Shown: in pieces, positions 3,001 to 60,120 of the stretch
How the letters are laid out: each line of letters opens with the position of its first letter
How positions within the stretch are numbered: position 1 is the first letter of the stretch
Source of the DNA: an uncultured Planctomycetales bacterium
GTDB taxonomy: Bacteria; Omnitrophota; Gorgyraeia; Zapsychrales; Fredricksoniimonadaceae
DNA length: 64,000 bases
Direction of reading: 5' to 3'
Assembly: GCA_964438075.1 (NCBI GenBank)
Contig: CAYTIW010000007.1
Location: 1-64,000 of the forward strand
Notes under the pieces: generated by a model
Told to the model about the DNA's origin: nothing
The model's database searches: none
The model's input: only the letters and a program-made list of their open reading frames with translations
Made by a program: the position numbers and the translations under genes

Positions 3001-6000
3001 GATGTTAACTGGACCGATCTGAGCGTTCTGACCGATGCCGGGGTCAACTGGACAGACATGGAGACCTTGTCCCACAGTAATCTTAATTGGTCAGATCTGG
3101 AAGTGATGACCAACGCCGCAGTTAATTGGGCCGACTGGTCCTCTATCAGCACCTCGGCTATAAATTGGGGTGATATGAACACACTGACCTCATCAGCTAT
3201 TAATTGGTCCTCTCTGGGAGATATGACCATCAGCGGAATTAACTGGTCTAGTTTCTCTGACATGACCGTGAGCGGGATAAACTGGACCGACATCGGAACC
3301 ATGACCGACTCGGGTGTGAATTGGGAAGACATCGGCATTATGAGCTCTGCCGGAGTGAACTGGACAGATATGGAGAAAATGTCCCTGACAGGGATCAACT
3401 GGAGCGATATCCAGTCCATGAGCGATACGGGTATCAATTGGACCGACCTCGGTGCCATGGCCGCGGCAGGTGTTAATTGGTACGATATGGAATATATGAG
3501 CGATGCCGGTATTAACTGGATGGACATTGAAACCTTGACGAATAGAGGGATCAATTGGGTTGATATCGAATCTTTATCACTAGCCGGTATCAACTGGTCG
3601 GATATTGGTACTATGAGCAGTTCTGGTGTCAACTGGACGGATCTGCAGACTTTAACTGAGACAGGTGTTAACTGGGATGACCTGCAGTCTCTGACTTTTG
3701 CGGGAGTGAATTGGAGCGATCTCGGCTCCTTAAGTACCTCTAGTGTAAATTGGGCTGACCTGGTTTCGATGACTCAAAATGGCGTTAACTGGACCGACTT
3801 GTCGGTGATGTCTGATGCCGGAGTCAATTGGTCCGATTTCTCTGTCTGGACGGCTGCCGGGGTCAACTGGGATGATTTCGCCGTATTGACAGATTCAGGC
3901 ATCAATTGGAACGATTTGGAAATGATGAGCGAATCATCATTGAACTGGGCCGATCTGGCGTCTATGACCCTCAATGGTGTGAATTGGGCTGATCTCTCCA
4001 CATTGAGCGAAGCGGGCGTTAATTGGACCGACCTGTCTGTAATGAACTCTATGGGTGTAAATTGGGCTGACCTGAATGCTATGACAACTGCGTCGGTAAA
4101 TTGGGAAAGTTTGGAAGTGTTGACCAAGACCGATATCAATTGGGATGACCTGCAGACTATGACTGTTTCAGGAGTTAATTGGATGGACCTTGCGACAATG
4201 TCCGATGCCGGTGTGAACTGGATCGATATAGAGTCCATGAGTAAGGCTGATGTTAATTGGACCGGCATCGAATATCTATCCCAGGCAGGCGTGAATTGGG
4301 ATGATCTCTCAGTATTGAGTGACTCAAGTGTGAACTGGATGGATATGGAATACATGAGTAAAGCTGCGGTTAACTGGACCGACCTCATGCAGATGAGCGT
4401 TTCCGGAGTCAATTGGCTGGACCTGGGCGATATGACAGGGGCAGGGGTTAACTGGAGTGATATCAACGCCATGACTTCGGCCGGTGTGAATTGGACTGAA
4501 CTCCAATCCATGTCCGAGACCGGTGTGAATTGGGATGACCTGTCGGCCCTGACTTCGGCAGGTGTTAATTGGGTTGATCTGGAGGCGATGACAGTGTCCG
4601 GGGTGAACTGGACCGACCTCATGCAGATGAGCGTTTCCGGAGTCAATTGGCTGGATCTGGGCGATATGACAGGGGCGGATGTTAACTGGAGCGATATCAG
4701 TACTCTCTCTGCCGCCGGTATTAATTGGGACGACATCACTACCCTCAGTACGGTCGGGGTCAACTGGGCGGACCTTTCGACCATGTCTTCGGCGGGAGTG
4801 AACTGGTATGATGTTGGTTCTTTGTCTTTAGCTGGTGTCAATTGGGAATATTTCGAAGAGTTCTCTACGGCAGGTGTCAATTGGGATGACTTGTCCATAT
4901 TGAGTTCTGCAGGGGTCAACTGGACCGACCTCAATTCGATGACTTCGGCTTCGGTGAATTGGGAAGGTTTGGAGATATTGACCAAGACCGATATCAATTG
5001 GGATAATTTCGGGGCGATGACAACTGCCGGTACGAATTGGGATGCGTTCTCGTTCATGACCACGGCCGGCGTCAACTGGGATGAATTAGCTTCAATAACA
5101 TATACCGGTGTCAACTGGGATGACCTGCAATCGTTGACCGATGCTGGAATTAATTGGAATGACCTGCAGTATATGACCTCTACAGCTGTCAATTGGACCG
5201 GTCTGGAGGCGATTTCAAACACTACTGTGAACTGGGAAGATCTCGCCTCTATGACCTCGGCGGGAGTGAATTGGAATAGTCTGGAATTTATGTCCAGCGC
5301 CGGGATCAACTGGTCCGATTTCGAGTCCTTGACCAATAAGGGTATAAATTGGGATGACATCAGCAAAATGGCCAGTTCGACTATCAATTGGTCAGATTTC
5401 GAGAACCTGACCGAAGCCGGAATAAATTGGGATGGATTAAGTGTCATGTCAGAAACGGCTATCAATTGGGATGACCTTATGGCTTTGAGTGTATCGGGCA
5501 TCAATTGGCTCGATTTTGCATATTTGTCTCAAGCCGGGGTCAATTGGGAAGATATCGAGAGCATGACAGTAGCTGGTGCTAACTGGGAAGACCTGACGAT
5601 GATGGGCAGTGCGGGCATCAATTGGGATGCCCTGTCCTATATGTCCGCCGCCAATGTGAACTGGGATAGTTTGCAATCATTGTCCGTGGCTCAGATGAAC
5701 TGGCAGGGACTGAGTGACATCTCTCTCGCTGGTGTAAATTGGGAGAACATCGGCGATATGTCCAGAGATGGGGTCAATTGGCTTGACGTAGGGGCATTAT
5801 CCGAAGCGGGTATCAACTGGTCGGATTTCACTCAACTGACGAACACCGGTATCAACTGGGAAGATGTAAGGACTTTGAGCGAAACCGGTATTAATTGGAA
5901 CAGCATCGGCGAAATGGCAGAGGCGGGTATCAATTGGCAGGGCATCTACACCTTGAGCTATGCGGACATTAACTGGGAGGGGATCGGTGATATGTCCACC

Positions 6001-6380
6001 AGTGGTATTAATTGGCTGGATATCGGCCTGCTTTCCCAGGCCGGGGTCAACTGGGCTGAGATCGCAACGATGTCGTATGCGGACTTGAATTGGGATGAGA
6101 TAGCGGTAATGACGGATAGCGGGATCAACTGGTATAGCATAGGCGATATGACAGCTTCGCAGATCAACTGGAACGACGTGGCGGTTATTTTTGAATCCAG
6201 TATCAATTGGGATGATCTGAGTGTGATGTCTACCCGAGAGGTGAACTGGGCTGACGTCACTGTTATGACCACTTCCGATGTTAACTGGGGTGACGTGGGT
6301 GGTTTCTCCACGACCGGTGTCAATTGGGCAGATATGGCCAGGATGACCCATTCTAATATAGACTGGAGAGAAATGAGTTA
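1..6380 (+). repeat. Coding tandem repeat array, 39-bp period (13 codons), ~160 units, degenerate at synonymous positions
   Basis: Recurrent gg[n]aa[ct]tgg[n]c[n]gat motif every 39 nt. Units differ mostly at wobble positions while the G/N/W/D codons persist. Confidence 0.85.
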
Positions 6381-7083
6381 TTTCTCTGCCAATGCCAGGA
6401 CCTTGGTTTCGAATATCCAGGATATATTCGATAATATCGGAAGCGATCCCACAACGACTGACCAAACGACCTTGTTCGGCAAGATCAACCGGATGATCAC
6501 CGCTATCAACGATGTTGATATCAATACGATCGTCAGCATATTGGGAACAGCTGCGGATACCAAAGCTTCCAATACTATCTTTGGAGATCTTAATGCGGTC
6601 CAAGCGGCTATAGGTGATCCCAGCACCAGCAGCACTGTTTTCGAGCAAATGGATGTCATTCAGGACTTTGCCAAGAAAGGCAAGGACAGCGCCGATGCCG
6701 CTTTAGGGGTCACCAAGAATATAGAAAGCGATCTGGGGGTTTTTGGCCAGACCCCGACGACATATGAGAAACTCAGGCAGCTGGAGGATTATATCAAGAA
6801 TATTCAGCAGGCTGCGCTGGAATTGGGACCAAAACAGGAAGCCACGAGCGCGGTTGCCGATCAACTGGTAGAAATGGTACGTCAGATAATCAATGAACAG
6901 GCAAAGCAGGTCGGCTTGGAGACGACCGGGATGATGATAGAGAAACTCTCCAAACAGCAGTCCGAAGATGTCGAAAAGATCAACGAGAAGCTGGAAGAGA
7001 TCGATGCCAAGATCAGGGCTTTGCAGGAAGCTATGAAAGCCGATGACGTCGTTATCAAGACCTGGTTTGAAAGTGAGGAGTAA
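1..7083 (+). CDS. Giant tandem-repeat protein, 5' end outside the window (>=2360 aa visible). About 160 copies of a 13-aa unit, then a ~235-aa non-repetitive helical/coiled-coil C-terminal domain. Probable secreted or surface fibre/adhesin.
   Basis: Continuous frame-1 ORF from base 1 to TAA at 7081-7083. Strict 13-aa periodicity with invariant G-x-N-W and D at +2, visible by eye across ~6.3 kb. A downstream gene starts 4 nt after the stop with its own RBS. Confidence 0.85.
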   Translation: MNWEDVEALTKTGVNWTDIEVISKTGINWTDLENISKTGINWADLNALTLAGINWTDIETISKTGINWTDLEVMTVEGVNWSDINKLSDTGINWADIDVLSRTGINWLDIESMSNRGINWYDLSALSTTGINWLDIEVISDTGINWMDVASLSSSGINWNDMEMFSNAGINWSDLESMTRTGVNWTDLQIMSNSGINWNDLDIMSTVSVNWTDIATLSSSGVNWTDIEALSTTGINWSDLNAMTLAGVNWADIEALSHTGINWLDLGTMTLSGVNWDDINSMTLAGVNWSDIETISQAGINWTDIETWTKAGINWTDFETMTVSGINWDDLQEATNSAVNWTDIQALSLAGINWIDFGSLSNAAINWTDLEAMTKEGINWTDVSALSNIGMNWSDLQSMTISAINWADMVTMSSAEINWEDLAVMSSTGLNWEDIGILSAAGVNWSDLDIMSRSEINWSDLSVLTSSAINWMDMEVLSKSGLNWADLESMTVAGVNWTDIEALSKTGVNWIDIERLSSSDINWEDIERISTSSINWTDIEQLSVSGINWADMATLSASEINWADIAAMSSEAVNWLDLEVLSKTGVNWADWEAMTVAGVNWTDMEAISKAAINWTDLETMTVTGVNWMDLESISKTGINWSDLNAMTVAGVNWTDMEVLSKSAVNWMDMQTLSSAAINWVDMSAMSLAGVNWTDLEILSEQGVNWIDIETLSTAGINWEDIQSLTTSSINWGDIEVISKTGVNWEDISALSSTGVNWTDLQSMTMAGVNWTDLETISKTEINWMDLSAMTLSGVNWNDISAMSANGVNWTDLQSMSMAGVNWTDMEYLTTAEVNWSDLGTLSNAGINWLDIDSLSNTGINWSDINIMSDAGVNWSDIAYLTSSNVNWTDLESLTKTSVNWADLESITKAAINWTDLESMTKASVNWTDLAALTVTGVNWADIEAISKSAINWTDLQSMTMAGVNWTDLGAMTLTGINWDDMQVLHENGVNWDDLAFMSRADVNWTDLSVLTDAGVNWTDMETLSHSNLNWSDLEVMTNAAVNWADWSSISTSAINWGDMNTLTSSAINWSSLGDMTISGINWSSFSDMTVSGINWTDIGTMTDSGVNWEDIGIMSSAGVNWTDMEKMSLTGINWSDIQSMSDTGINWTDLGAMAAAGVNWYDMEYMSDAGINWMDIETLTNRGINWVDIESLSLAGINWSDIGTMSSSGVNWTDLQTLTETGVNWDDLQSLTFAGVNWSDLGSLSTSSVNWADLVSMTQNGVNWTDLSVMSDAGVNWSDFSVWTAAGVNWDDFAVLTDSGINWNDLEMMSESSLNWADLASMTLNGVNWADLSTLSEAGVNWTDLSVMNSMGVNWADLNAMTTASVNWESLEVLTKTDINWDDLQTMTVSGVNWMDLATMSDAGVNWIDIESMSKADVNWTGIEYLSQAGVNWDDLSVLSDSSVNWMDMEYMSKAAVNWTDLMQMSVSGVNWLDLGDMTGAGVNWSDINAMTSAGVNWTELQSMSETGVNWDDLSALTSAGVNWVDLEAMTVSGVNWTDLMQMSVSGVNWLDLGDMTGADVNWSDISTLSAAGINWDDITTLSTVGVNWADLSTMSSAGVNWYDVGSLSLAGVNWEYFEEFSTAGVNWDDLSILSSAGVNWTDLNSMTSASVNWEGLEILTKTDINWDNFGAMTTAGTNWDAFSFMTTAGVNWDELASITYTGVNWDDLQSLTDAGINWNDLQYMTSTAVNWTGLEAISNTTVNWEDLASMTSAGVNWNSLEFMSSAGINWSDFESLTNKGINWDDISKMASSTINWSDFENLTEAGINWDGLSVMSETAINWDDLMALSVSGINWLDFAYLSQAGVNWEDIESMTVAGANWEDLTMMGSAGINWDALSYMSAANVNWDSLQSLSVAQMNWQGLSDISLAGVNWENIGDMSRDGVNWLDVGALSEAGINWSDFTQLTNTGINWEDVRTLSETGINWNSIGEMAEAGINWQGIYTLSYADINWEGIGDMSTSGINWLDIGLLSQAGVNWAEIATMSYADLNWDEIAVMTDSGINWYSIGDMTASQINWNDVAVIFESSINWDDLSVMSTREVNWADVTVMTTSDVNWGDVGGFSTTGVNWADMARMTHSNIDWREMSYFSANARTLVSNIQDIFDNIGSDPTTTDQTTLFGKINRMITAINDVDINTIVSILGTAADTKASNTIFGDLNAVQAAIGDPSTSSTVFEQMDVIQDFAKKGKDSADAALGVTKNIESDLGVFGQTPTTYEKLRQLEDYIKNIQQAALELGPKQEATSAVADQLVEMVRQIINEQAKQVGLETTGMMIEKLSKQQSEDVEKINEKLEEIDAKIRALQEAMKADDVVIKTWFESEE

Positions 7084-7086
7084 GCA

Positions 7087-8433
7087 ATGGTGGGACAGGG
7101 GCGTGGTTTTAAATTCCCGGTCCGGCGGATCGTTGCTCTGTGGTCTTTTGTTCTGTATCTTTTTTTATCCCTGCCTGTCTTCTCGGATGTTGTGATCAAC
7201 GTGTTGGCTGTTAACGGTTCCGACAAGACGATCGAGAAAGATATCCAGTTCAGTCTTCCAGGGGAGATCACGCCCCCTGACCTGGTAGACGCGGCAGGGC
7301 TGAATTTGGACTATAATTTTAATGATTCTGGATACTATTTGCATGGCAAAGTATCTTTGCAGGCCAAGGAAACGAAGACCCTGCGCGTAAAGATACGCGA
7401 TGTTTGGCAATTATCCGACCAGGATGTAAATGCCATCAGGACCGAGATCGAGCAAGGCTTCAAGGAGATGGGCGCCGAACGTAACAAGGATAATGGAGAG
7501 CTATTAAGGAAAAAGCTGGTTGATAAACTGGAGTATATCTTAGCCGACCAAGCCCAGAACGCGGAGAACGTTGAAACACGCATCGATACTTATCGTAATC
7601 ATATCCAGACGCTGAATGAAATAAGGTCCCAAGCCAGGGCCATTGATTATTGGCGTTCGGATGCCAAGGAACCAGAGAACAATAAGACTGTTTATTACAA
7701 AGTTTTGGTTGAGAACCCCGGCGATAAGACCAGGAAGGTGAAGCAGCATCATTATCTGCCGAAAGAGGTCCTGCCGGAATATATTATCGACCGCAAAGGG
7801 TACGAGATACGTTTTGATGACAAAAAAAATCGGCCCTTTCTCTTTAAAGAAGAGGACATAGCTTCGAAGGAAAAAAAAGAAGTAAGTTTTGCTATCAGAG
7901 ACAAATGGTATATTCCTCAGAACGAAATAAGCTATGTACGTGAAAGGGCCAAATATGTAAATGATATCCTGGCCAAGTCCAAATATGTGGAGACCTCGCG
8001 GGGGCTTTTTAATAATATCACTAATTACCTGGACTTGATCGATATGCTGCAGAAGATCGAGCAGCCGGATATTCAGCAACATATCGGGGCTTATCGGCTT
8101 AATGAGGACCGGTTCGAGAAGGCCAAATCTGATCTGGATGATATAGAAAAGCTGCTTTCGCGCCACCGGGCCGAACTGGAGAAGAGCAAGGTCAAGAATG
8201 TCTTGCAGAAGATACAGTCCATGAAATCGCTGGCGCGTGTTTCTCAGGCGATTTTTGACAAGAAACCGACCGTGAATGCCGCTTGGAAGATAATCGGCAG
8301 CGTGCTGATCTTCTTAGGTATTTTTTCTATCATACATTTTGCGACTTGGTTTGCGCGTTCCTCGCGTGAAAGAAAACAGGAGCTTTTAAAAGAGGCAGAG
8401 GCTCAAGCGCATTCGCAGACCAAATCTGGATAA
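7087..8433 (+). CDS. Hypothetical bitopic membrane protein: N-terminal signal/TM helix, long charged coiled-coil-rich ectodomain, C-terminal TM helix
   Basis: ORF with GAGGAG RBS. Hydrophobic N-terminus (IVALWSFVLYLFLSLPVF) and C-terminal hydrophobic stretch (IIGSVLIFLGIFSIIHFATWF). No family recognised. Confidence 0.6.
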   Translation: MVGQGRGFKFPVRRIVALWSFVLYLFLSLPVFSDVVINVLAVNGSDKTIEKDIQFSLPGEITPPDLVDAAGLNLDYNFNDSGYYLHGKVSLQAKETKTLRVKIRDVWQLSDQDVNAIRTEIEQGFKEMGAERNKDNGELLRKKLVDKLEYILADQAQNAENVETRIDTYRNHIQTLNEIRSQARAIDYWRSDAKEPENNKTVYYKVLVENPGDKTRKVKQHHYLPKEVLPEYIIDRKGYEIRFDDKKNRPFLFKEEDIASKEKKEVSFAIRDKWYIPQNEISYVRERAKYVNDILAKSKYVETSRGLFNNITNYLDLIDMLQKIEQPDIQQHIGAYRLNEDRFEKAKSDLDDIEKLLSRHRAELEKSKVKNVLQKIQSMKSLARVSQAIFDKKPTVNAAWKIIGSVLIFLGIFSIIHFATWFARSSRERKQELLKEAEAQAHSQTKSG

Positions 8434-8448: not shown

Positions 8449-9915
8449 ATGAGCATAAAAGTACAGTATACGGAAGTCGGATACGTGAAAGCCATCCGCG
8501 GTTGTATCGTTATCGTGACCGGTTTTGGCAATTGCATTAACGGCCAGTTGATCCGGTTCGGATACGGCACTATCGGGATGGTTGTCGGGTTCACGGAGAC
8601 AGAGGCCCAGGTGCTGATCCTGAAAGAGACAGAAAAGATACGTACCGGCCAGGAGGCGCAAGCTTCGGTTGAACCTCTGGTCACACCCGTTGGAAAGAAT
8701 TTTATCGGCCGTATAGTTAATCCGCTAGCCGAGCCGTTGGATGGGCTGGGGCCGATCGTGCCGGATGATATTGCACCGATCTTTCCGGAATCGCCTCCCA
8801 TCCTGGACCGGCAGCCTTTGAACAAGACCTTGGAAACCGGGATCAAAGTCCTCGATGCCATGATCCCTATCGGGCGCGGTCAGCGGGAATTGATCCTCGG
8901 CGATAAAATGACCGGGAAGACCACCTTTGTTACGGATACGATCGTCAACCAGAAAGATGCCGGGGTAATATGTATTTATTGCGGTATCGGCAAGGCGCGT
9001 TCCAGCCTGGCAAAAGTGGTGCAGCTTTTCAAGGACCGCGGATGTTTCGATTACAGCATAATAGTTTCCGCCTCGGCATCCTCACCGCCTGGCCAGCAGT
9101 ATCTGGCCCCGTACGTGGCCTGTTCATTGGGGGAGTATTTCATGCGTCGCGGACAGGATGTTTTTATCGGATTCGACGATTTCACTAAGCATGCCTGGTC
9201 TTACCGGGAGATATCCTTACTATTGGGACGGCCGCCGGGGCGTGATTCTTATCCGGGAGACATATTTTATCTTCACTCCAAAATGATCGAACGCGCCTGT
9301 TTCCTTTCCAAGGAGAAAGGCGGAGGGTCCATGACTTTCTTCCCGATCGTTGAGATACTCGAAGGGGATCTTACCGCCTTCGTGCCCTCGAACCTGGTCT
9401 CCATGACAGACGGTCAGATATACCTCAGCGCCCAGCTTTTCGGTGAAGGGCAGAAACCGGCCCTGGATCTAGGCTTGTCCGTTTCCCGGGTTGGATCCAA
9501 GGTCCAATGGCCGGCTATCAAGGCGTTGTCCGGGCCTCTGCGTTTGGAGTACCTGCAGTACCGCGAATTGCTGCGGATTTCCAAGTTAAAGACCTCCGGT
9601 CAGTCTGAGGACATGAAGCAGAAATTGAAACGCGGTTCGATACTGACCGCCATCCTCCGGCAGTACAAGGATTCGCCGGTGTGCCAGGAAATGCAGGTGT
9701 TGATATTCTACGCCTTTAACAAGAAGTATCTGAACGATTTCACAATCGAGCAGGTCGACGCTTTTCAGAATAGCTGTCTGGAGTATACCAAGAACGTGAA
9801 GCCGGAATTTTTGACGCTATTGAGAGAGCGCCGCAAGTTGGACCCCGAGATCGAGAAATTGATGGATGAAGTTATAAATGGCCTGTCAGCGCAAGTAACT
9901 GGGAAGGGGCATTAA
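8449..9915 (+). CDS. atpA: F-type ATPase alpha subunit homolog
   Basis: Motifs GRGQRELILGDKMTGKTT (P-loop region), QYLAPY, SLLLGRPPGRDSYPGDIFYLHS. Collinear with bacterial AtpA over the full length. Confidence 0.85.
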   Translation: MSIKVQYTEVGYVKAIRGCIVIVTGFGNCINGQLIRFGYGTIGMVVGFTETEAQVLILKETEKIRTGQEAQASVEPLVTPVGKNFIGRIVNPLAEPLDGLGPIVPDDIAPIFPESPPILDRQPLNKTLETGIKVLDAMIPIGRGQRELILGDKMTGKTTFVTDTIVNQKDAGVICIYCGIGKARSSLAKVVQLFKDRGCFDYSIIVSASASSPPGQQYLAPYVACSLGEYFMRRGQDVFIGFDDFTKHAWSYREISLLLGRPPGRDSYPGDIFYLHSKMIERACFLSKEKGGGSMTFFPIVEILEGDLTAFVPSNLVSMTDGQIYLSAQLFGEGQKPALDLGLSVSRVGSKVQWPAIKALSGPLRLEYLQYRELLRISKLKTSGQSEDMKQKLKRGSILTAILRQYKDSPVCQEMQVLIFYAFNKKYLNDFTIEQVDAFQNSCLEYTKNVKPEFLTLLRERRKLDPEIEKLMDEVINGLSAQVTGKGH

Positions 9916-9978
9916 ATTTAGTTCTTATGCGGATGTGTTTTATCTGAGGCTGCTAGAGGTGAGGGAGAAAAGCGTTCT

Positions 9979-10248
9979 ATGCCACCATTATATAAGGGGA
10001 ATTTCCGTTGCGTGATCTTGAGCGCCAAGCGTTTGGTATTTGAGGCTGAGATAAACAGCCTTTTTATTACCGGTGATAGGGGAGAGTATGAGCTTTTGGC
10101 ATATCATTATCCTCTTATCGGTATCGTTAAAGGCGATATTGTGATCAATTGGGAAAAACGTTTGCCGGTAAGGGGCGGGGTGGTGCGGTTCTTCGCTAAT
10201 GAATGCAATGTCATGATCGAAGAAGCCCCAGCTCAGAAAACCAACTGA
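9979..10248 (+). CDS. atpC: F-type ATPase epsilon subunit homolog, beta-sandwich domain only (C-terminal helical hairpin absent)
   Basis: 89 aa. Pattern ...FITGDRGEYELLAYHYPLIGIVKGDIVIN... matches the epsilon N-terminal domain. The protein ends where the inhibitory helices would begin. Confidence 0.6.
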   Translation: MPPLYKGNFRCVILSAKRLVFEAEINSLFITGDRGEYELLAYHYPLIGIVKGDIVINWEKRLPVRGGVVRFFANECNVMIEEAPAQKTN

Positions 10249-10263
10249 GATTAGAGGGAGGCC

Positions 10264-10482
10264 ATGTTAGCTGAAACATTCATTATTATTACGGTAATGT
10301 TCATAGCTGTTATGGGGCCGAACGTCGTCATCGGTATGCTGGGCTATGCCGTGATCAAAGCGCTAAGTAGAAATCCCTCTGCCGCTTCCAAGATCTTCGG
10401 AGCGATGGTCATCATGTTGATATTCGTGGAGGCGATATCGATCGTGGCCATGATGGTGATTTTCCAACTTTTTGCGAGGTAA
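10264..10482 (+). CDS. atpE: F-type ATPase c subunit (proteolipid) homolog
   Basis: 72-aa two-helix hairpin. Polar loop RNPS (where E. coli has RQPD) and conserved carboxylate in helix 2 (LIFVEAISIV). GGGAGG RBS. Confidence 0.8.
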   Translation: MLAETFIIITVMFIAVMGPNVVIGMLGYAVIKALSRNPSAASKIFGAMVIMLIFVEAISIVAMMVIFQLFAR

Positions 10483-10485
10483 TCG

Positions 10486-10716
10486 ATGCAATTTCAGTAT
10501 TGGCCCGAAGGATTGATATTTATAGCCCTGTTCACGTTTATTATCGGGTTCCCCTGTGTCATGGTGGCTATATTGGGAACAAAACTTATTAATTATATAG
10601 GTCAGTATCCGTCCAAGTGTGCCAGGCGTCAGATGATAGCGTGTTTGCAGCTTTTTGTGATTGAGCTGATCTCGTTCGCGATCTTGGCGCTTTTTTATCA
10701 TATCTTTTCCGATTAA
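10486..10716 (+). CDS. Small 2-TM membrane protein between the c and b genes (AtpI/AtpR-like position; function unknown)
   Basis: 76 aa with two hydrophobic segments and Arg residues (ARRQMIA) next to the second helix. Starts 4 nt after the c-subunit stop. Far too short to be subunit a. Confidence 0.5.
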   Translation: MQFQYWPEGLIFIALFTFIIGFPCVMVAILGTKLINYIGQYPSKCARRQMIACLQLFVIELISFAILALFYHIFSD

Positions 10717-10730
10717 CAAAGGAGCCGGTC

Positions 10731-11486
10731 ATGACGTTCGAATTGATCGTTGGATTCTTCATACTAAATGCCCTTGTTACAGGGGCTATTATTCTGGCCC
10801 TGCACTGGGTCTTTGTTTCCAGTGTCGACGGAGCCAAACAAAGGCTGGAACGCGATGCCGAGTCTGCCCGGGCCCGCGAGGCGGAACTTAACCGCAAGAT
10901 CAGGCAGGCTGATGAAGAGCTAACGGCCCGGAAGAAAGAACTCGACCTTGTCGAACAGCGGATGAAAGGCCAGCTTGAGCAAGAGACCGAAAAACACCGG
11001 GAAGACCTGGTAAACAAGGCCCGTAGCGAGGCTGAAGAGATCATCGCCAAAGCACAGATAGCGGCTGAAGGTTTGCGCAAGGAGGCTGAGAAACAGATGG
11101 AGATAAAGATCATCGATTATTCGACCAGGATACTTAACGAGATCTTTTCTAGAAAGGCCAAAGCGGCTTTTGAAAAAGATCTGGTCGAAGAGTTCGTTTC
11201 CCAACTTAAAGAGATCGATATGTCCAAGATCAGCCTCGAGATCAAGAAGGCCGAAGTGGTTACCGCCTGCGGGATATCCGATGAGGACCTGAAACGTATT
11301 GCGGATATGGTCAGGGTAAAGACCGGCCGCGACATAGCTTTGGAGACCAAGGTGTCGGATGAGTTTGTGGCCGGGGTGGTGGTCAAGTTCGGCAGCCTGC
11401 ATTTGGACGGAAGCGTGCGGAACGCCATTCGGGAATCGGCGTTAGCCCTAAAAGGCGAAGTTGATAAGGGGAATTTACGAAAGTAA
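10731..11486 (+). CDS. atpFH: F-type ATPase b subunit fused to the delta (OSCP) C-terminal domain
   Basis: N-terminal TM helix, then an A/E/K/R-rich coiled coil (b-like), then a C-terminus ...VAGVVVKFGSLHLDGSVRNAIRESALAL matching the delta C-domain GG-I-R-GD-V-DGSV signature. 251 aa. Confidence 0.7.
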   Translation: MTFELIVGFFILNALVTGAIILALHWVFVSSVDGAKQRLERDAESARAREAELNRKIRQADEELTARKKELDLVEQRMKGQLEQETEKHREDLVNKARSEAEEIIAKAQIAAEGLRKEAEKQMEIKIIDYSTRILNEIFSRKAKAAFEKDLVEEFVSQLKEIDMSKISLEIKKAEVVTACGISDEDLKRIADMVRVKTGRDIALETKVSDEFVAGVVVKFGSLHLDGSVRNAIRESALALKGEVDKGNLRK

Positions 11487-11498
11487 AAAGAGCTCGTA

Positions 11499-13791
<2,293 letters not shown>

Positions 13792-13793
13792 AG

Positions 13794-15539
13794 ATGTTGA
13801 AGTCAGCGGTAAATAAAGCAGTATGCGAAGCGCTTCTCAAAAGTACTCTTTTGGACGAGCCTAACCTCCAGAAATATGCCGCTGAGGCCCATCGGCTGAA
13901 CCAGAAGATATCCTTTTACCTCGTCCAGCAAGGCATTTTGAAGACCCCCGCCGTTCTCCGGGCCTTGGCAGAACATTTCCACTTGGATATCGTCAATCTG
14001 AAGACGGTCAATGTCGACCGTATGGCCATCGACCGGGTCCCGGTCAAGTTCGCTTCCTATTACCGATTCATGCCCTTGGCCGTGGACGGGAACCGTTTGA
14101 CAGCTGCTGTTTCGGAACCGCTGGATATACATAATCAGGACGACATACGCGCGCATTTAGGCCTGGAACCGCGTTTTGTCCTGGCCTCGCCGTGGGATAT
14201 CGATGAAGCTCTGAAGCGTTATTACGGCCTGGCTTCCGAGACCATTGACCAGATATTGACCAAGGACCCGCAGAAACGGTCGGCCTTTTCCGAAGACCGT
14301 TCTTCCAAGATAGAGGATATCGAGAAGCAGAGCGAAGACCCGTCGGTCACTAAACTGGTCAATCAGATCATTTTGGAGGCCTACCAGAAGCGGGCTACGG
14401 ATATCCACATCGAACCCTACCGTAACCGGGTCCGTTTCCGCTATCGTATCGACGGGGTTCTGCTCGATGCCAATCTCCCTCCGGAAGCAAAGCATTTTCT
14501 CCTGGCCATAATATCGCGTATAAAGATCATGGCCAACCTGACCATCACCGAGAAGCGGCTTCCCCAGGACGGGAGCGCGGTGGTACGCGTGAAGGAACAG
14601 GCCCTGGACCTGCGCGTTTCAACCATCCCCACCCAGCACGGGGAGAGCATGGTCATACGACTTTTGCCGACCACTACCACGCTGCTGGACCTGGAGAAGC
14701 TAGGGTTTAATGCCGATAATGCCAGCAAGTTCAGGGAACTGATACGCCATCCGCATGGCGTTATTTTTGTTACGGGGCCTACCGGTAGCGGAAAGACCAC
14801 CACCTTGTACGCCTGCCTGAACGAGATCAACGACCCGACCCGCAAGATCATCACTATCGAGGACCCGATAGAGTATGAGATGGAGGGGATCACTCAGATA
14901 CAGATCAACTCCGGCATCGATTTCGGTTTCGCGACCGGCTTGCGCAGCATCCTGCGGCACGATCCGGACATCCTCATGGTGGGAGAAGTGCGGGACCGGG
15001 AGACGGCCGACATCGCTATTCGTACTGCCCTGACCGGCCATTTGGTGTTCTCCTCGCTGCACACTAATGATGCCGCAACCGGGGTGACACGCTTGGTTGA
15101 TATGGGGGTGGAACCTTATCTGGTGGCCTCGAGCGTGCAAGCTTTCATTGCCCAGCGTTTGGTGAGGGTCATATGCCCGCAGTGCAAAGAGGAGGACCGC
15201 GAGCCGCTGATGGAGATAAGGAAGGAGATAGCCAGGAGTTTAGGTTTCTCCTCGCTGGATGAAATAAAATTCTTCAAGGGCCGGGGCTGTGACCAATGCA
15301 ACAATACGGGTTATTATGGCCGTACGGCTATTTATGAAATATTGGAGATAACCGAAGCCATCCGCTCCGCGATCCTGGACAAGCCGAGGGCGGAAGAGAT
15401 AAAACGCATAGCCGTACACGGAGGGATGCGCACGCTGCGGCAGGACGGCTGGAAGAACGTTATAGCCGGTGTTACCACTCCGGCCGAGGTCTTGAACGTA
15501 ACGCTTAAGGAGACGGCTGGGGCATCCTCCGCGGTCTAG
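13794..15539 (+). CDS. gspE: Type II secretion / type IV pilus assembly ATPase (GspE/PilB family)
   Basis: N-terminal GspE_N-like region, Walker A GPTGSGKTT, Asp-box, His-box, and a C-terminal tetracysteine CPQC...CDQC. The start codon is 2 nt after the atpD-like stop. Confidence 0.9.
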   Translation: MLKSAVNKAVCEALLKSTLLDEPNLQKYAAEAHRLNQKISFYLVQQGILKTPAVLRALAEHFHLDIVNLKTVNVDRMAIDRVPVKFASYYRFMPLAVDGNRLTAAVSEPLDIHNQDDIRAHLGLEPRFVLASPWDIDEALKRYYGLASETIDQILTKDPQKRSAFSEDRSSKIEDIEKQSEDPSVTKLVNQIILEAYQKRATDIHIEPYRNRVRFRYRIDGVLLDANLPPEAKHFLLAIISRIKIMANLTITEKRLPQDGSAVVRVKEQALDLRVSTIPTQHGESMVIRLLPTTTTLLDLEKLGFNADNASKFRELIRHPHGVIFVTGPTGSGKTTTLYACLNEINDPTRKIITIEDPIEYEMEGITQIQINSGIDFGFATGLRSILRHDPDILMVGEVRDRETADIAIRTALTGHLVFSSLHTNDAATGVTRLVDMGVEPYLVASSVQAFIAQRLVRVICPQCKEEDREPLMEIRKEIARSLGFSSLDEIKFFKGRGCDQCNNTGYYGRTAIYEILEITEAIRSAILDKPRAEEIKRIAVHGGMRTLRQDGWKNVIAGVTTPAEVLNVTLKETAGASSAV

Positions 15540-15634
15540 TGCCTTTTTGCCCATTTTTACTTCAGCCCCCTGTCCTGGTGTTTTGCATCGTTGGGATCGT
15601 TCGATGACTCTAAATAATGAAAGGGGCCGGTCCC

Positions 15635-16846
15635 ATGCCGGTTTTTGCCTATAAAGCCAAAAAAGACAATGCTGAGACGGTCCTGGGCGATATCGTGGCC
15701 CGGGATGCCAACGAGGCTATCGAGATGGTCAGCCGTCGCGGTCTCTTGCCGGTCGCCGTTGAAGAGAAGGAAGGAGAGGGTGCGGCATCTGTATTGGGAT
15801 TGTCTGCCGGAAATGTCCGTCGAAAAGACATCATGGTGTTCACGGGGCAGTTGGTGAGCTTGCTGAAGGCCGGGGTCCCTCTTCTGCAATCGATAGAACT
15901 GTTGTCAAGGAAGACACGCAACGCCAAACTAGCCTATGTTCTGTCCGATATCGCGCTGAACATACGCAACGGCAAAACTTTCTCCGCAGGACTGGAGGAT
16001 CATCCGGATATCTTTGAGCCCCTGTATACGGCTATGGCCCGGGCGGGTGAGGAAGGCGGGAGCATTCGGGAAATGCTGGCTGAGATGGCTGATTATTATC
16101 GCAAGCAGGAAGATATCGCCCTAAAGGTCCGCGGCGCGCTGACTTACCCGGCGGTCATGTTGGTAGCCGGTATCGGCACGGTCATTTTTGTGCTTACTTT
16201 CGTGCTGCCTAAGATCAAGGTGCTTTTCAAGGATATGCATACGGCGCTCCCCTTGCCAACGGTGATAGTACTCAAGTTGAGCGAGATGGTGCAGAATGGG
16301 TGGCCCGTGATCCTGGCTATTGCGGTCCTGGGCGCTTTATCATGGCAATCCCTCCGTCGCATGGCAGCTTTCCGGAGGGCCGTTGGCCAGGTCATTTTTG
16401 CCTTGCCATGGGTAAGGGAGTTTGCCTTGAAAATAGAGATGCAGAGGTTCACCAGGACCATGAGCTTCCTGCTGGAAGGCGGCATCCCTATATTGCGGGC
16501 TTTGGAGCTGGCCATCCCGACACTGTCAAATGAAACTTTGAAGGATGACCTGGGCAAGTGCAAAGATATGATAGCGGACGGCGCCACCTTTGGGGACACG
16601 CTAAGACGTTCCGTTCTCATACCTGATATAGTGCCGTCATTGGTAGCGGTAGGGGAAGAGGCCGGCGCGCTCGCACAATCACTCAGGGATATAGCGGAGA
16701 CTTACGAGCAGGAGATCGGCGAAAGCACCAAGGCCATGTCGACCCTGCTGGAACCGCTCCTGATTCTCCTGGTGGGATCGGTGATAGCCTTCATTGTTTT
16801 TGCTATGTTGATGCCTATATTTCAGATGGATATTTTCGCCCAATGA
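15635..16846 (+). CDS. gspF: Type II secretion inner-membrane platform protein (GspF/PilC family)
   Basis: Start MPVFAYKAKK... is typical of GspF. Two GspF-domain repeats with three TM segments. The ORF track extends 6 codons upstream, but an RBS favours 15635. Confidence 0.85.
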   Translation: MPVFAYKAKKDNAETVLGDIVARDANEAIEMVSRRGLLPVAVEEKEGEGAASVLGLSAGNVRRKDIMVFTGQLVSLLKAGVPLLQSIELLSRKTRNAKLAYVLSDIALNIRNGKTFSAGLEDHPDIFEPLYTAMARAGEEGGSIREMLAEMADYYRKQEDIALKVRGALTYPAVMLVAGIGTVIFVLTFVLPKIKVLFKDMHTALPLPTVIVLKLSEMVQNGWPVILAIAVLGALSWQSLRRMAAFRRAVGQVIFALPWVREFALKIEMQRFTRTMSFLLEGGIPILRALELAIPTLSNETLKDDLGKCKDMIADGATFGDTLRRSVLIPDIVPSLVAVGEEAGALAQSLRDIAETYEQEIGESTKAMSTLLEPLLILLVGSVIAFIVFAMLMPIFQMDIFAQ

Positions 16847-17685
16847 CCCTGACATGGAAGTTCATAGCGCCGGTGGCCGTGTTATGGTTAGTTATGGTTA
16901 TGGGCCCCGCGCGGGCCGTTGAAGAGCCATTTCGTGAACTTAAGGGCGATCATTTTATTGTCAAATATTTGCTTGAGGATGAACGCAGCCGGGCTGTCCA
17001 GATATTAACCCGCGCGGAGTTATATTATAAGAGGGTGGCTGAAAGTATCGGTTATAACCGTTACCAGGAATACTGGACTTGGGAACGGCGCGTGACCGTA
17101 GTTCTTTATCCTGACCAACTGTCCTACGCCAAGTTCACCGGACAGCCACAGTGGTCCAAGGGGTATGCCAGCCGGGATTCCAAACTGTTCAGGACCAAGG
17201 TGATCGTTTCCTATGATGGCCAGCCTGAATTCCTGGAGGAGATATTGCCGCATGAGATCGCACATTTGATCCTGTGGGATTTTCTCGGATTTACCCGTAA
17301 GGTGCCGATATGGTTCGAGGAGGGCTTGGCCCAGCGGGAGGAGGATGGCAAGAGAGCCGTTGTGCAGCAGGCCATGAAGGAAGTTGTCATTTCCGGGAAC
17401 GATATCCCTTTTGCCACCTTCCATGGACTGGATGTGGGCAGGATCACGGACCCGGTGCAGGTTTCATTGTTCTATGCCCAAAGTCTCTCGGTGGTGGAGT
17501 TCATGATCGGTAAATACGGCCGTGATGCTTTCAGGAACTTTTGTCGTGAGATACGGGAAGGCCGGGCGTTCGAGGAGGCTTTGCCCCGCGCCTACCCGGC
17601 CATCTTTCGGACGGTGGATGATCTGGGATCGAAATGGAAGAATTATATGCAGAATGAAGTTGTTTCTTCAGGAGGCGGGCTATGA
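16843..17685 (+). CDS. Secreted gluzincin-like metallopeptidase (HExxH ... E), family uncertain (Peptidase_MA-like)
   Basis: Signal peptide. HEIAHLILWDF followed about 18 aa later by WFEEGLAQ, giving thermolysin-like zinc ligand spacing. Overlaps the gspF stop (ATGA). Confidence 0.5.
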   Translation: MTLTWKFIAPVAVLWLVMVMGPARAVEEPFRELKGDHFIVKYLLEDERSRAVQILTRAELYYKRVAESIGYNRYQEYWTWERRVTVVLYPDQLSYAKFTGQPQWSKGYASRDSKLFRTKVIVSYDGQPEFLEEILPHEIAHLILWDFLGFTRKVPIWFEEGLAQREEDGKRAVVQQAMKEVVISGNDIPFATFHGLDVGRITDPVQVSLFYAQSLSVVEFMIGKYGRDAFRNFCREIREGRAFEEALPRAYPAIFRTVDDLGSKWKNYMQNEVVSSGGGL

Positions 17686-18089
17686 ATAACAGCAGAGGGT
17701 TCACGCTGGCAGAGATAATGCTGGTGGTCATCATAATAGGGGCCTTGGCGGCCATGGTCGTCCCCCGCTTGTCCGGCCGGTCCGAACAGGCCCGTATCGC
17801 CGTAGCCAAGGCGGATATAAAGACCAACATCCCTACCGCTTTAAAAATGTACGAGTTGGACAACGGAATGTATCCAACTACAGAGCAGGGTCTCCAGGCT
17901 CTCCGGGAAAAACCATCGTCCGCCCCGGCCCCCAGGTATTGGCACGGGCCTTATTTGGAACAGGATCCGGTGGACCCTTGGGGTAATCCTTACTTTTACG
18001 AATCACCGGGGACCCATCGCTCAGATTACGACTTATATTCCAAAGGCAAGGACCAGAATTCTCCCGATGGTTACATCACCAACTGGTAA
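17682..18089 (+). CDS. gspG: Major pseudopilin GspG (T2SS)
   Basis: Prepilin leader plus GFTLAEIMLVVIIIG. Conserved GspG core LDNGMYPTTEQGLQAL...GPYL...DPWGNPY.Y.SPG...YDL.S.G.D...DI.NW. AGGAGG RBS. Confidence 0.9.
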   Translation: MNNSRGFTLAEIMLVVIIIGALAAMVVPRLSGRSEQARIAVAKADIKTNIPTALKMYELDNGMYPTTEQGLQALREKPSSAPAPRYWHGPYLEQDPVDPWGNPYFYESPGTHRSDYDLYSKGKDQNSPDGYITNW

Positions 18090-18528
18090 CAGGACCGCCC
18101 ACCGCCGAAGCTTTTTCCCGGACTCAAGGGTGGGGCTGACTTTCGTCGAGGTCATGGTCACCTCGGTAATACTATCGGCGGGGCTGGTGGCGATTTACCG
18201 GTCTTTCTTCATCGCAGCTGACGTCGTGCAGCATCTTTCCAACCGGCTTTACGCCCTGAATCTGCTGGAAAACAAGATCACAACGATAGAAAGGGATTTC
18301 CGGTCGCGGAAAGATTTCGATATCGGCCCCTTGACTGAAGACGCCGTGGTGAATAATCATCCCGTGGTTTTTCAGTATCGAGTGGAACTAAAGCCGGTGG
18401 GCAGTCTTCTGACAGTGTTCCAGCTCGACATTTCCTTGTCCTGGGAGGAAAGGGGAAGGTTTCGGAGCGTTTCCCGTTCGGCCTATTTTTCCGGTGTGAC
18501 CCCCTTGGAAAAGGGGGATGCCTCATGA
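18067..18528 (+). CDS. Minor pseudopilin (GspH/GspI-like)
   Basis: G|LTFVEVMVTSVILSAGL N-terminal methylation-type hydrophobic helix after a basic leader. Operon position. The exact start is uncertain. Confidence 0.55.
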   Translation: MVTSPTGNRTAHRRSFFPDSRVGLTFVEVMVTSVILSAGLVAIYRSFFIAADVVQHLSNRLYALNLLENKITTIERDFRSRKDFDIGPLTEDAVVNNHPVVFQYRVELKPVGSLLTVFQLDISLSWEERGRFRSVSRSAYFSGVTPLEKGDAS

Positions 18529-19148
18529 GCTTTCGACACGAAAGGGGCCTTATGAAATCCTGCCGTAACTCCGGCTTTACTCTGGCCGAGGTCCTTTTGG
18601 TAACGGTCCTTTTCGCTTCCATAGGGCTGGTAGTTTTCAACTGCCTGAACAATGGCCTCAAACTATGGATGAGGAGCCAGAGCCTGGTTGACGAGCAGGA
18701 TGCGATCGTTTTCTTTGACCGTATAGCCGGGCATTTGCGCAACGCCTTCCTTTATTCAGAGATCCAATTTGCCGGAGAGCCTGAACGGCTGGCATTCCCG
18801 ACGGTTGTTTATACCCCAGCGGACCGGGCAAGTTCGCGTGCCTGGGAAGGATACGTGGAACAGATAGGGATGGTCCGGTATTCCTTTGATGTCGCCCGAG
18901 GCAATGTCTTGCGTGAAGAGGCTGATTATTCTCTCGCCACCCGGGGCAGCTTCGGCCCGGCGAGAGTGGAAGTAAAAGGGGTCAAAGACCTCCGTTTCAG
19001 GTATTACTACTCCGGACACACAGAACCTTCCTTGACCGCTCACGATCAAAAGGCGCTGCCGGCCGGGGTGGAGGTGGAGATACGTTTGGCGGGAGACGGC
19101 GCTGAGAAGGTGTTGAAACGCTATGTGCCTATCCCGGCGGGGAGTTGA
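18525..19148 (+). CDS. Minor pseudopilin (GspJ-like)
   Basis: NSG|FTLAEVLLVTVLFASIGLVVF prepilin-type N-terminus. 207 aa. Overlaps the neighbouring genes. Confidence 0.55.
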   Translation: MSFRHERGLMKSCRNSGFTLAEVLLVTVLFASIGLVVFNCLNNGLKLWMRSQSLVDEQDAIVFFDRIAGHLRNAFLYSEIQFAGEPERLAFPTVVYTPADRASSRAWEGYVEQIGMVRYSFDVARGNVLREEADYSLATRGSFGPARVEVKGVKDLRFRYYYSGHTEPSLTAHDQKALPAGVEVEIRLAGDGAEKVLKRYVPIPAGS

Positions 19149-19149
19149 T

Positions 19150-20178
19150 ATGCGGGTATCGTCCAGCCAAGGCGGTTTTATATTGATCTTTACTCTGTGG
19201 GTGCTTGGTTTTCTTTCCGTTCTGGCTATCGCCGTCGGAATGGGTTCCCGGCAGAAGATCGCTTTTCTGGAAAGGCTGGAAGACCGCAGCCGGCAGCACC
19301 TGTCCGCAGAGGCCGGGGCCAAGAAGGCGCTCGCTTTGTTGGTCGACGATATCGAGAACAACAAGTTGGCTTTTAACGCCGAGGCCAAGTCCCGTAGGCA
19401 TAATAATCCGGCTGATTTCTCCGGCATTGTTGTCGGCGATAACGGATTCGATGTCTTACACACGGTTTATGACGAAACATCCGGCGCCATGGTGGAACGC
19501 TATGGGGTTTCCGACGAGCAGGGAAAACTCAACCTTAACAACGTCAGTGGCGAACAGCTGGCCAGGCTCTTGGCAGACGTTTTGGGCATGACGACCGAAG
19601 AGGCGCGGAAACAGTCCCAGGCTATTATAGACTGGCGCGATTATGGCAAACATGAAGCCGAAGGTTTTTTTAGCGACGATTATTATAAGAATCTCGAGCA
19701 TCCTTATGAGATGAAGGAGAAGCCCTTCGAACGCATCGATGAACTCTTGCTGGTGAAGGGGCTTGATAATAATAAGTACCATAAATTGCTGCCGTTCGTC
19801 ACGGTATGGGGAGATGGCAGGGTGAACATCAATACCGTTTCGGAGAGGGTCCTCGTTGCGCTGGGGCTGGATCCGGCAGTGGCAGAAAAGGTCCTTAAGG
19901 TCCGCCGGGGAACGGATGACCTTGAATCTACCAGCGACGACCATATATTCACCCGGGCTTTTGATGTTGCCGTTGAGGTCAAGGCGGTCTTGCCTCTGGA
20001 AGAACGCGAGATGCGGCAGATCGACGCCCTTAACACCCGCGGGCTGTTGTCGGCCAATTCTTTTTTGTATTCCATTCGAAGCCGGTCATTGCTGGCTGAC
20101 GGAAAAACAGGCGGGGCAGAAGTGAACATGGTTTTTGATGCTTTGGCCAATAAAATCGTATTCTGGTTCGAAAAATAA
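19150..20178 (+). CDS. gspK: Minor pseudopilin GspK-like
   Basis: N-terminal hydrophobic helix GGFILIFTLWVLGFLSVLAIAVG. About 340 aa with HhH-like segments (ERVLVALGLDPAVAEKVLKVRRG). ATG at 19150 has a GGGGAG RBS; the ORF track begins at 19123. Confidence 0.5.
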   Translation: MRVSSSQGGFILIFTLWVLGFLSVLAIAVGMGSRQKIAFLERLEDRSRQHLSAEAGAKKALALLVDDIENNKLAFNAEAKSRRHNNPADFSGIVVGDNGFDVLHTVYDETSGAMVERYGVSDEQGKLNLNNVSGEQLARLLADVLGMTTEEARKQSQAIIDWRDYGKHEAEGFFSDDYYKNLEHPYEMKEKPFERIDELLLVKGLDNNKYHKLLPFVTVWGDGRVNINTVSERVLVALGLDPAVAEKVLKVRRGTDDLESTSDDHIFTRAFDVAVEVKAVLPLEEREMRQIDALNTRGLLSANSFLYSIRSRSLLADGKTGGAEVNMVFDALANKIVFWFEK

Positions 20179-20244
20179 ATCAGTTTTGGGTTGATTGACG
20201 GAAAAAGCTTAGTCTATAATGTAGCCATCAAATGCGGAGAAAAC

Positions 20245-21744: not shown

Positions 21745-21755
21745 GGAGTCCCGCC

Positions 21756-22391: not shown

Positions 22392-22425
22392 TCTTTTAGC
22401 CGCCGGCGTTTCGCCTGTCCCCATT

Positions 22426-25810: not shown

Positions 25811-25850
25811 AAAAAAACCTTCTTCCGGAATGGAAGAAGGTTTTTTGTTT
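25811..25850. terminator. Bidirectional rho-independent terminator (9-bp GC-rich stem CCTTCTTCC/GGAAGAAGG, 5-nt loop, flanked by an A-run and a T-run)
   Basis: aaaaaaaCCTTCTTCCggaatGGAAGAAGGttttttgtttt, lying between the end of the + operon and the tRNA on the minus strand. Confidence 0.8.
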
Positions 25851-31951: not shown

Positions 31952-32191
31952 ATGCCCAGCACCAAGAATGAAGCTTTATTGAGCAACGCAAAGGTCCAGG
32001 AAGAGATATCCAAACACCGGTGGATAGAGAGCGAGAAGGCTGGTTCGGACATCGGTTTTGACAGAGCAGCTAAGGACTGGCTTAACCGTTTTTCAGATGA
32101 TTGGATAAAGGCCAATTTGTCGCAGCATAGCACGGTGACCCGTAGTCTTTTCAAGGCCGCTAACAACAAAACCAGGGCCAAACGGGGGTAG
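31952..32191 (+). CDS. Small conserved protein, paralog A (79 aa), family not recognised
   Basis: GGAGG RBS. Core VQEEISKHRWIESEKAG.DIGFD.A.KDWL.R.S..W.KANLS shared with the paralog at 33229. Confidence 0.6.
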   Translation: MPSTKNEALLSNAKVQEEISKHRWIESEKAGSDIGFDRAAKDWLNRFSDDWIKANLSQHSTVTRSLFKAANNKTRAKRG

Positions 32192-59470: not shown

Positions 59471-59473
59471 ATA

Positions 59474-60118: not shown

Positions 60119-60120
60119 TG

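Follow-up and report, generated by a model that had tools for sequence, protein, structure and literature searches.

Rotary F-type ATPases are textbook energy converters and, to our knowledge, there is almost no precedent outside Mycoplasma for one that has been rebuilt as the dedicated motor of a surface machine. Here, an F-type ATPase locus is described that lies in a 64,000-nucleotide stretch of DNA (contig CAYTIW010000007.1, positions 1–64,000 of the forward strand; this whole stretch is referred to below as the window) from an uncultured bacterium of the Omnitrophota. Comparison with related loci suggests that it probably encodes an accessory, non-bioenergetic rotary ATPase that hydrolyses ATP and is dedicated to an envelope machine of type II secretion system (T2SS)-like and giant proteins.

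The closest described system is that of Seymour et al. (2023; Nat Microbiol, PMC10066038), who reported a `non-respiratory/symbiotic' F-type ATPase beside type-4 pilus genes in Omnitrophota. In 57 of 66 contigs the distance between the ATPase and the type-4 pilus genes was within 10 kb, and the locus was present in every class, often with giant open reading frames (ORFs). The symbiotic alpha and beta sequences formed a clade separate from the `respiratory' F-type clade of Omnitrophota, alpha clustering with Mycoplasma type 2/3 sequences, and a role in attachment to or motility on hosts was proposed by analogy with Mycoplasma. By co-location, the locus in the window is the same thing: its F-type alpha and beta genes lie less than 10 kb from genes for a type IV filament. 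Seymour et al. defined it by alpha/beta phylogeny and co-location only and named the partner a type IVa pilus (T4aP), whereas T2SS-like genes (GspG, J, K, L and M) make up the partner here. The text and supplements of PMC10066038 were found to contain neither the c, c' and b/delta genes nor the missing subunit a, nor the losses of the alpha N-terminal helix, the delta N-terminal domain and the epsilon C-terminal domain, nor p448, the 13-aa-repeat protein or the carboxylate-free c variants reported below. A literature search likewise found no account of which subunits make up the complex, of the lack of a, of c' and p448 or of c variants without the carboxylate. Loci of this type are on record in the literature; what they consist of and how they work are not. 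In a 2026 preprint on 176 complete genomes (bioRxiv 10.64898/2026.06.07.730766), alpha/beta were reported in 125 and canonical gamma in only 30, with V/A-type ATPases common; the reason for the gamma shortfall was not recognised, and counts for subunit a are not among the figures given.

The plus strand of the window from position 1 to ~25.8 kb forms a single co-directional, tightly packed gene array. A seven-gene F-ATPase set had been placed at 8449–13794 by the initial annotation; these coordinates match seven ORFs, all on the plus strand (8449–13791), whose order is alpha–epsilon–c–c'–b/delta–gamma–beta and whose families, c' excepted, were confirmed with Pfam. The array as far as the first secretion gene is as follows.

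1–7083, plus strand: repeat protein, C-terminal 2360 aa or more (ORF; 5' end cut by the start of the window).
7087–8433, plus strand: p448, a bitopic membrane protein (ORF directly upstream of alpha; AlphaFold2 model).
8449–9915, plus strand: F-type alpha (ATP-synt_ab, E 1e-69).
9979–10248, plus strand: epsilon, 89 aa (PF02823 model positions 1–80 of 80, E 5.6e-7).
10264–10482, plus strand: c subunit, 72 aa (PF00137 ATP-synt_C, E 2.5e-7).
10486–10716, plus strand: c', a 76-aa two-helix hairpin (profile–profile match to c).
10731–11486, plus strand: fusion of b and the delta C-domain, b/delta (PF00213, OSCP, model positions 97–168 of 172, E 4.7e-11).
11499–12356, plus strand: gamma (PF00231, E 2e-28).
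12367–13791, plus strand: beta (Pfam, E 1e-69).
13794–15539, plus strand: GspE/PilB-family assembly ATPase with N-terminal MshEN (PF00437, E 5e-131; PF05157).

The ATPase genes are separated by gaps of 3–63 nt, which leaves no space for a hidden gene inside the block, and only 2 nt lie between the beta stop codon and the start of GspE.

Related loci were collected in two steps. A scan of GTDB species representatives gave 51 loci with gamma identities of 45–92%, and a gamma search against 1.84 billion representatives extended the family to ~25% identity. Genomic context was looked up for 12 of the distant gammas, 11 of which lie in the same locus type; the other is an orphan in an archaeal context and outside the family. 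Gamma homologs bearing organism names all come from Candidatus Omnitrophica/Omnitrophota metagenome-assembled genomes. The 62 related loci (51 + 11), spanning gamma identities from 92% to ~25%, share the neighbourhood. The order shared by all 51 GTDB loci is 13-aa-repeat protein, p448, alpha, epsilon, c, c', b/delta, gamma, beta, GspE, GspF, followed by (peptidase MA), GspG, a 153-aa protein, GspJ, GspK, a PilM–PilN fusion and GspM. The order within the ATPase block varies among loci (alpha–epsilon–c–(c')–b/delta–gamma–beta, epsilon–c–b/delta–alpha–gamma–beta or c–b/delta–alpha–gamma–beta), and beta adjoins GspE in every locus whose contig reaches there, with a median gap of 3 nt over the 51 loci; the arrangement is kept in 51/51 loci with both ends present. 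The neighbourhood with giant and gsp genes thus recurs, and in the 51 + 11 loci the ATPase genes never occur apart from the secretion genes, lying between the repeat/giant gene and GspE. The description of the set by the initial annotation as spliced into a secretion operon is right about the operon context and misleading about insertion, because the arrangement is ancestral and conserved across the related loci. On this comparison, the ATPase genes are packed tightly against GspE and inherited together with it across the phylum.

Three loci depart from these layouts. A 20-kb contig (L064) carries epsilon–c–b/delta–gamma–beta–GspE with a secretin gene upstream, and the alpha gene is absent from the contig. 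At L063 (1–5731) a 592-aa unrelated gene stands directly before alpha–gamma–beta, and c and b/delta are absent there. The near-identical L062 (1–1400) has a c gene in which E is changed to Q, then a 500-bp gap and b/delta–alpha–gamma–beta. The orphan gamma-like gene (L067, 10001–10894; 23% identity, 88.7 bits) has archaeal-type neighbours (eIF2-alpha, S27e, RadA-like and SRP54) and no other ATPase genes within ±10 kb.

The catalytic head resembles that of a canonical F1Fo synthase, and homologs of gamma, epsilon, c, b and delta are also present. Alpha and beta were placed by profile and PDB bit scores, by both of which they are nearest to canonical atpA and atpD; alpha scored 521.6 bits against TIGR00962 (NCBIfam atpA, cutoff 484.45) and beta 537.9 bits against TIGR01039 (NCBIfam atpD, cutoff 462.85). 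Gamma is divergent (TIGR01146, 73 bits against a cutoff of 194), and the NCBIfam equivalog scores of gamma, epsilon, c, b and delta are all far under the cutoffs. The Walker A motif and catalytic Glu of beta had been noted as intact from the window alone. Both were seen here and are kept among orthologs: the Walker A sequence GGAGCGKT is present in 47/47 sequences and the catalytic GERIREGNE in 46/47. Beta also bears an EELSKxD motif, which is DELSEED-like, and the P-loop and the SRVG arginine finger of alpha are conserved. A decaying or pseudogenised operon was ruled out because the catalytic motifs of alpha and beta are invariant (46–47/47 orthologs). The locus thus encodes a complete F1 (alpha, beta, gamma and a truncated epsilon) with an intact catalytic site.

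The locus differs from a canonical synthase in its periphery, in an extra c paralog and in the embedding of its genes in a T2SS-like operon. Alpha is without the ~20-residue N-terminal delta-binding helix, since PDB alignments begin at canonical alpha residue 22–30 and the ORF starts 15 nt past the p448 stop codon. Epsilon consists of the N-terminal beta-sandwich only, a state conserved in orthologs; Pfam covers the N-domain alone, and 89 aa are too few to accommodate the C-terminal helices, whose absence the initial annotation had noted. The b/delta protein has an N-terminal transmembrane (TM) helix, a b-like coiled coil and a delta/OSCP C-terminal domain. The delta N-domain is missing, the OSCP model being covered from position 97 to 168 only, so that the earlier description of delta as reduced to its C-domain and fused to b holds. 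The best NCBIfam match of b/delta is the N-ATPase b subunit (TIGR03321, 43.9 bits; cutoff 224.7) and its orthologs also match PF00430 (ATP-synt_B). The stator interface is therefore remodelled, with the alpha N-terminal helix, the delta N-domain and the epsilon C-terminal helices all lost.

Subunit a and other neighbours were searched for in the 64-kb window and in the related loci at ±10 kb. No ORF in the window matched subunit a (ATP-synt_A, PF00119) or the V-type I subunit, and none matched V-type subunits. The absence of subunit a from the gene set, first noticed in the window, extends to the related loci: no a-like gene was present in any of the 62, and a hydropathy screen of L007–L066 gave no unassigned polytopic membrane ORF. 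In c', which has two TM helices, no membrane Arg is conserved.

The c subunit has an RNPS loop and a Glu in TM helix 2 (TM2), which reads FVEAIS; the Na+-binding ES/T motif is absent. Its identity is 57–86% across 46 aligned orthologs of the close set. The adjacent 76-aa protein, which the initial annotation had left unexplained, is instead a c-type protein according to alignment of the two ortholog families. It forms a two-helix hairpin with a conserved G-x-(Y/F/H)-P-(S/T)-(K/R) loop, is colinear in layout with c and carries a TM2 Glu in 31/42 aligned sequences, the c' of the window included. Used alone, c' gave no match in Pfam or in a PDB profile search. With hhalign, the c' family aligned to the c family with a probability of 97.8% (E 1e-12, 71 aligned columns); the score was 62.7 compared with a maximum of 15.6 for 40 column-shuffled controls and 8.4 for the reversed alignment. 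The two families are also linked by an extra c copy in L044, which matches both by BLASTP. The c' protein is thus a diverged paralog of the c subunit encoded next to it. It arose by a lineage-specific duplication and is absent from the deeper-branching loci. AtpR, AtpQ and AtpI were rejected as identities for c', for which neither Pfam nor NCBIfam gave a family match.

The c subunits of 48 loci keep the TM2 Glu. In its place the sole c gene of L065 encodes V and that of L062 encodes Q, whereas V or I is found at this site in L044, L054 and L055, each of which has a third c-type gene. In the latter loci three c-type genes (c2, c and c') lie in tandem (L044 4496–5190, L054 7140–7836 and L055 5905–6618) and it is the `main' c that has V or I at the carboxylate site; in L054 the Glu is missing from both c copies and is kept in c' only. 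These tandem variants suggest heteromeric rings with few or single carboxylates. A carboxylate-free c subunit cannot support ion-driven rotation. The carboxylate loss in L065 and L062 appears incompatible with a normal ion-driven synthase, so that at least some lineages would run the system without ion translocation.

If the complex is indeed an accessory ATPase dedicated to the envelope machine, it would hydrolyse ATP instead of making it and would be seated in the inner membrane by a c/c' ring and the b/delta anchor. Mechanical work would be passed to the co-encoded machine, most simply by rotation of gamma–epsilon–c-ring against alpha3beta3–b/delta, and the machine might secrete, extrude or move the repeat/giant surface protein or a pseudopilus in host or prey attachment. 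A dedicated rotary ATPase for secretion, extrusion or motility had been put forward from the window alone and is now supported by the comparative genomics of 62 loci; it is not a new idea, having been proposed in PMC10066038. An ultra-small, probably predatory or parasitic phylum would then keep F1, c-ring and stalk under strong purifying selection with the ion channel not found at the loci. Should the a-less reading hold, it raises the questions of what a c-ring does without half-channels, how torque leaves the membrane and how central the machine is to host attachment by Omnitrophota, and the complex would offer a natural intermediate for relating F/V-ATPases to secretion ATPases (FliI/FliH/FliJ).

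Two points weigh against this interpretation. The c Glu is kept in 48 loci and few proteins of the block are as well conserved as c; such retention is easiest to explain by continued ion binding and exchange, which would need an a-like partner. Secondly, fold searches with p448 gave no specific or informative structural neighbour, and the output side of the motor is conjecture.

The first of these points leads to the alternative that survives best, namely a genuine ion-translocating F1Fo with subunit a encoded elsewhere in the genome and adjacency to the secretion genes reflecting co-regulation or local energy supply. The RNP loop and TM2 Glu of the strongly conserved c would be as expected in most loci, and alpha and beta lie above the atpA and atpD cutoffs. 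The cell also appears to use ion gradients. On the minus strand at 58055–63764 the window contains a cluster of two Proton_antipo_M proteins with NuoK-like, NuoH-like and NuoB-like proteins (Mrp/complex-I-like), which resembles a group-4 membrane-bound hydrogenase or a complex-I-like module; the cell therefore has ion-translocating machinery independent of the F-like ATPase. Nevertheless, we consider a hidden synthase unlikely. In contrast to c and b, an a gene was not found in 62 loci; the carboxylate is lost in L065 and L062; alpha–gamma–beta at L063 has neither c nor b directly upstream; and the delta N-domain, alpha N-helix and epsilon C-domain are gone. The cluster was never seen apart from GspE in the loci examined and is placed outside the respiratory clade in PMC10066038. 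Anecdotally, one published KEGG Orthology list for one genome contains K02111 and K02112 (alpha and beta) without K02108, K02109, K02110, K02113, K02114 and K02115.

A more specific version of the accessory motor involves p448. In the AlphaFold2 model (mean predicted local distance difference test score, pLDDT, 90.9), an N-terminal signal/anchor is followed by two periplasmic modules, each of a beta-sandwich and a three-helix bundle. After these come a long helix and the only TM helix of the C-terminal part, and the chain finishes in a short cytoplasmic tail. Neither Pfam nor NCBIfam has a family that covers p448. Its position is conserved across loci, and of its 79 homolog clusters the few that bear an organism name are mostly labelled Omnitrophica/Omnitrophota, with one labelled Elusimicrobia; p448 appears to be Omnitrophota-specific. 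Ac45/Voa1-type helices sit inside V-ATPase c-rings. By analogy, the C-terminal TM helix of p448 could lie in or on the ring, which would then be a pure mechanical rotor without subunit a, and rotation could cross the inner membrane via p448 to a periplasmic apparatus in which its modules drive the pseudopilus or a fibre of the 13-aa-repeat/giant protein. The idea parallels one proposed for the Mycoplasma signal-peptide/TM proteins encoded before alpha. It is offered tentatively, as quite improbable in this form; if true, it would mean that nanobacterial predators possess a rotary trans-envelope motor of a new type, powered by ATP.

The F1 head might alternatively act without any relevant c-ring rotation, as a FliI/FliH/FliJ-like cytoplasmic ATPase that handles substrates or activates a gate for giant-protein export. 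The FliI–FliH–FliJ complex likewise pairs an F1-related ATPase with a b+delta-like stalk protein in the service of an envelope-spanning secretion machine, and the b/delta fusion shares the architecture of FliH (b + delta; PMC2881411, citing Pallen 2006). A very large secreted protein is, moreover, co-encoded in most loci. The complete repeat-protein ortholog (L031, 868 aa), however, has an ordinary N-terminal signal peptide, gate homologs of the type III secretion system (T3SS) were not found in the window and Pfam gave no FliH or FliJ match. The T3SS ATPase complex is a homohexamer without a c-ring. The set described here keeps an alpha/beta heterohexamer together with c subunits and is partnered by a type IV filament system, all of which makes export-gate duty very improbable.

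Two accessory F-type families remain to be compared with the locus. In the type 2 (G1, gliding) and type 3 (F1-like X0, MIB-MIP) complexes of Mycoplasma, as here, an F1-derived accessory ATPase serves a surface machine, subunit a is absent, alpha is without its N-terminal helix and the gene immediately preceding alpha (here that of p448) codes for a protein with a signal peptide and C-terminal TM segment(s). The Mycoplasma sets comprise seven genes without b, delta and c, whereas c, c' and b/delta are present here; gene order differs, neither of the X0 hallmarks (the 12-TM protein and its small cytoplasmic companion) is encoded here, and the Mycoplasma signal-peptide protein has two C-terminal TM helices compared with one in p448. 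Against the Mycoplasma NCBIfam models, alpha scored 391 (cutoff 600) and 283 (cutoff 520) compared with 522 for atpA, and beta 414 (cutoff 850) and 380 (cutoff 570) compared with 538 for atpD; the M. mobile G1 beta (PDB 9io5_A) gave 341 bits compared with 394–453 for canonical betas. The Mycoplasma precedent cited by the initial annotation is therefore apt as a functional and architectural analogy and fails as family membership, and the `type 2/3' label of Seymour et al. is not supported by the sequence comparisons. Despite the clustering of alpha with type 2/3 in PMC10066038 and the shared alpha truncation, preceding signal-peptide/TM protein and surface-machine association, membership of the F1-like X0 family with the same working mode, e.g. 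gliding, is scarcely credible given scores far under the cutoffs and under the canonical ones, the missing X0 genes and the presence of F-type c and b/delta.

N-ATPases (atpDCQRBEFAG) are likewise second-copy F-type enzymes in which a long b is fused to a C-terminal part of delta and a separate delta is absent (PMC2881411). They differ in keeping subunit a, AtpR, AtpQ, a Na+-binding c and a fixed gene order, none of which was found here. The alpha and beta scores against the `alternate F1F0' NCBIfam models were 490.8 (cutoff 750.5) and 448.5 (cutoff 752). An N-ATPase identity was rejected: a, AtpR, AtpQ and the Na+ motif were not found at the locus, the cutoffs were missed and, as noted earlier for the window, the order is unlike atpDCQRBEFAG.

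Downstream of GspE the array continues with the following features.

15617–16846, plus strand: GspF/PilC-like platform protein (PF00482, E 2.5e-59).
16843–17685, plus strand: peptidase MA-superfamily protein (PF13485, E 5e-13).
17682–18089, plus strand: GspG, first gene of the pseudopilin gene block (17682–20178).
18067–18528, plus strand: 153-aa protein, unassigned, within the pseudopilin gene block.
18525–19148, plus strand: GspJ-like gene, pseudopilin gene block.
19123–20178, plus strand: GspK-like gene, pseudopilin gene block.
20191–21744, plus strand: PilM–PilN fusion, GspL-like (Pfam).
21756–22391, plus strand: GspM/PilO-like gene (Pfam).
22303–23232, plus strand: TPR protein (TPR families).
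25812–25846, no strand assigned: intrinsic-terminator-like hairpin with a 16-bp stem, the only strong one; it closes the array.

Pfam matches in the pseudopilin block are PF08334 (E 4e-32), PF11612 and PF21687 (E 7e-16), and those in 20191–23232 are PF11104, PF05137, PF10741 and TPR families; both groups of genes are conserved among the GTDB loci. The array ended by the hairpin runs from the repeat protein through glycosyltransferase genes. The secretion genes are T2SS-like in having GspG, J and K domains, a GspL-like PilM–PilN fusion and GspM. GspE (TIGR02533, 588 bits; cutoff 630) and GspF (TIGR02120, 325 bits; cutoff 424) fall under the NCBIfam cutoffs. Secretin, GspC and prepilin peptidase were not found with Pfam/NCBIfam at the locus of the window; the L064 contig has its secretin upstream.

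MshEN is a cyclic di-GMP-binding module. It forms the N-terminal domain of the GspE-like ATPase, to which a PilZ C-terminal domain is added in L058, L060, L061, L062, L064 and L065; the MshEN domain, with PilZ in the deeper loci, hints that the whole machine may be under cyclic di-GMP control. At L062 a separate 155-aa MshEN protein stands ahead of GspE. The peptidase MA gene lies between GspF and GspG in most loci and directly upstream of epsilon in L068 and L069, and its product appears to be a component of the system.

The giant repeat protein reported upstream of the ATPase genes is present, with the repeat unit corrected to 13 aa: 163 exact-period copies of A-G-[VI]-N-W-x-D-[LI]-x-x-[ML]-[ST]-x, in which N-W is invariant, are followed by a conserved tail, a coiled coil of ~250 aa ending ...KTWFESEE. 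Orthologs lie upstream of the ATPase in nearly all GTDB loci. Their length ranges from the 868 aa of the complete L031 protein to >2360 aa, with widely variable copy number. In loci of the epsilon–c–b/delta–alpha type, other giant proteins of >4000–5900 aa replace the repeat protein; a giant or repeat gene is found upstream in most loci (>5,900 aa in L066). No Pfam family describes the repeat protein; Pfam matches on the repeats are spurious, no stretch being significant, and the idea of dockerin-type repeats is unsupported by Pfam. AlphaFold2 gave no confident model for 20 repeats (pLDDT 43.6, with in-register segments of the window as the alignment).

N-W-T/S, an N-glycosylation sequon, is read in 39% of the repeats of the window. 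The sequon idea was dropped because orthologs differ in the fraction with T/S at +2 (3% to 78%) and the sequon is thus not conserved. Glycosylation genes flank the locus: PMT_2 (23288–24949) and a family 2 glycosyltransferase, GT2 (24961–25767), are followed on the minus strand by an STT3-family oligosaccharyltransferase (26087–28618), and a second PMT_2 lies at 41760–43205. STT3 also follows the T2SS-like genes in L060 (19085–19523) and L061 (20084–20554). A link between these genes and the repeat sequons is unproven.

Elsewhere in the window, two paralogous ORFs of 79–80 aa (31952–32191 and 33229–33471) share EEISKHRWIESEKAG.DIGFD and lie in a gene-poor stretch of 2.5 kb. The segment 52000–56000, which encodes a HAD hydrolase, a DAGK/NAD-kinase-like gene and two ORFs without a family, has a GC content of ~0.395 compared with ~0.54 in neighbouring sequence and may be foreign DNA.

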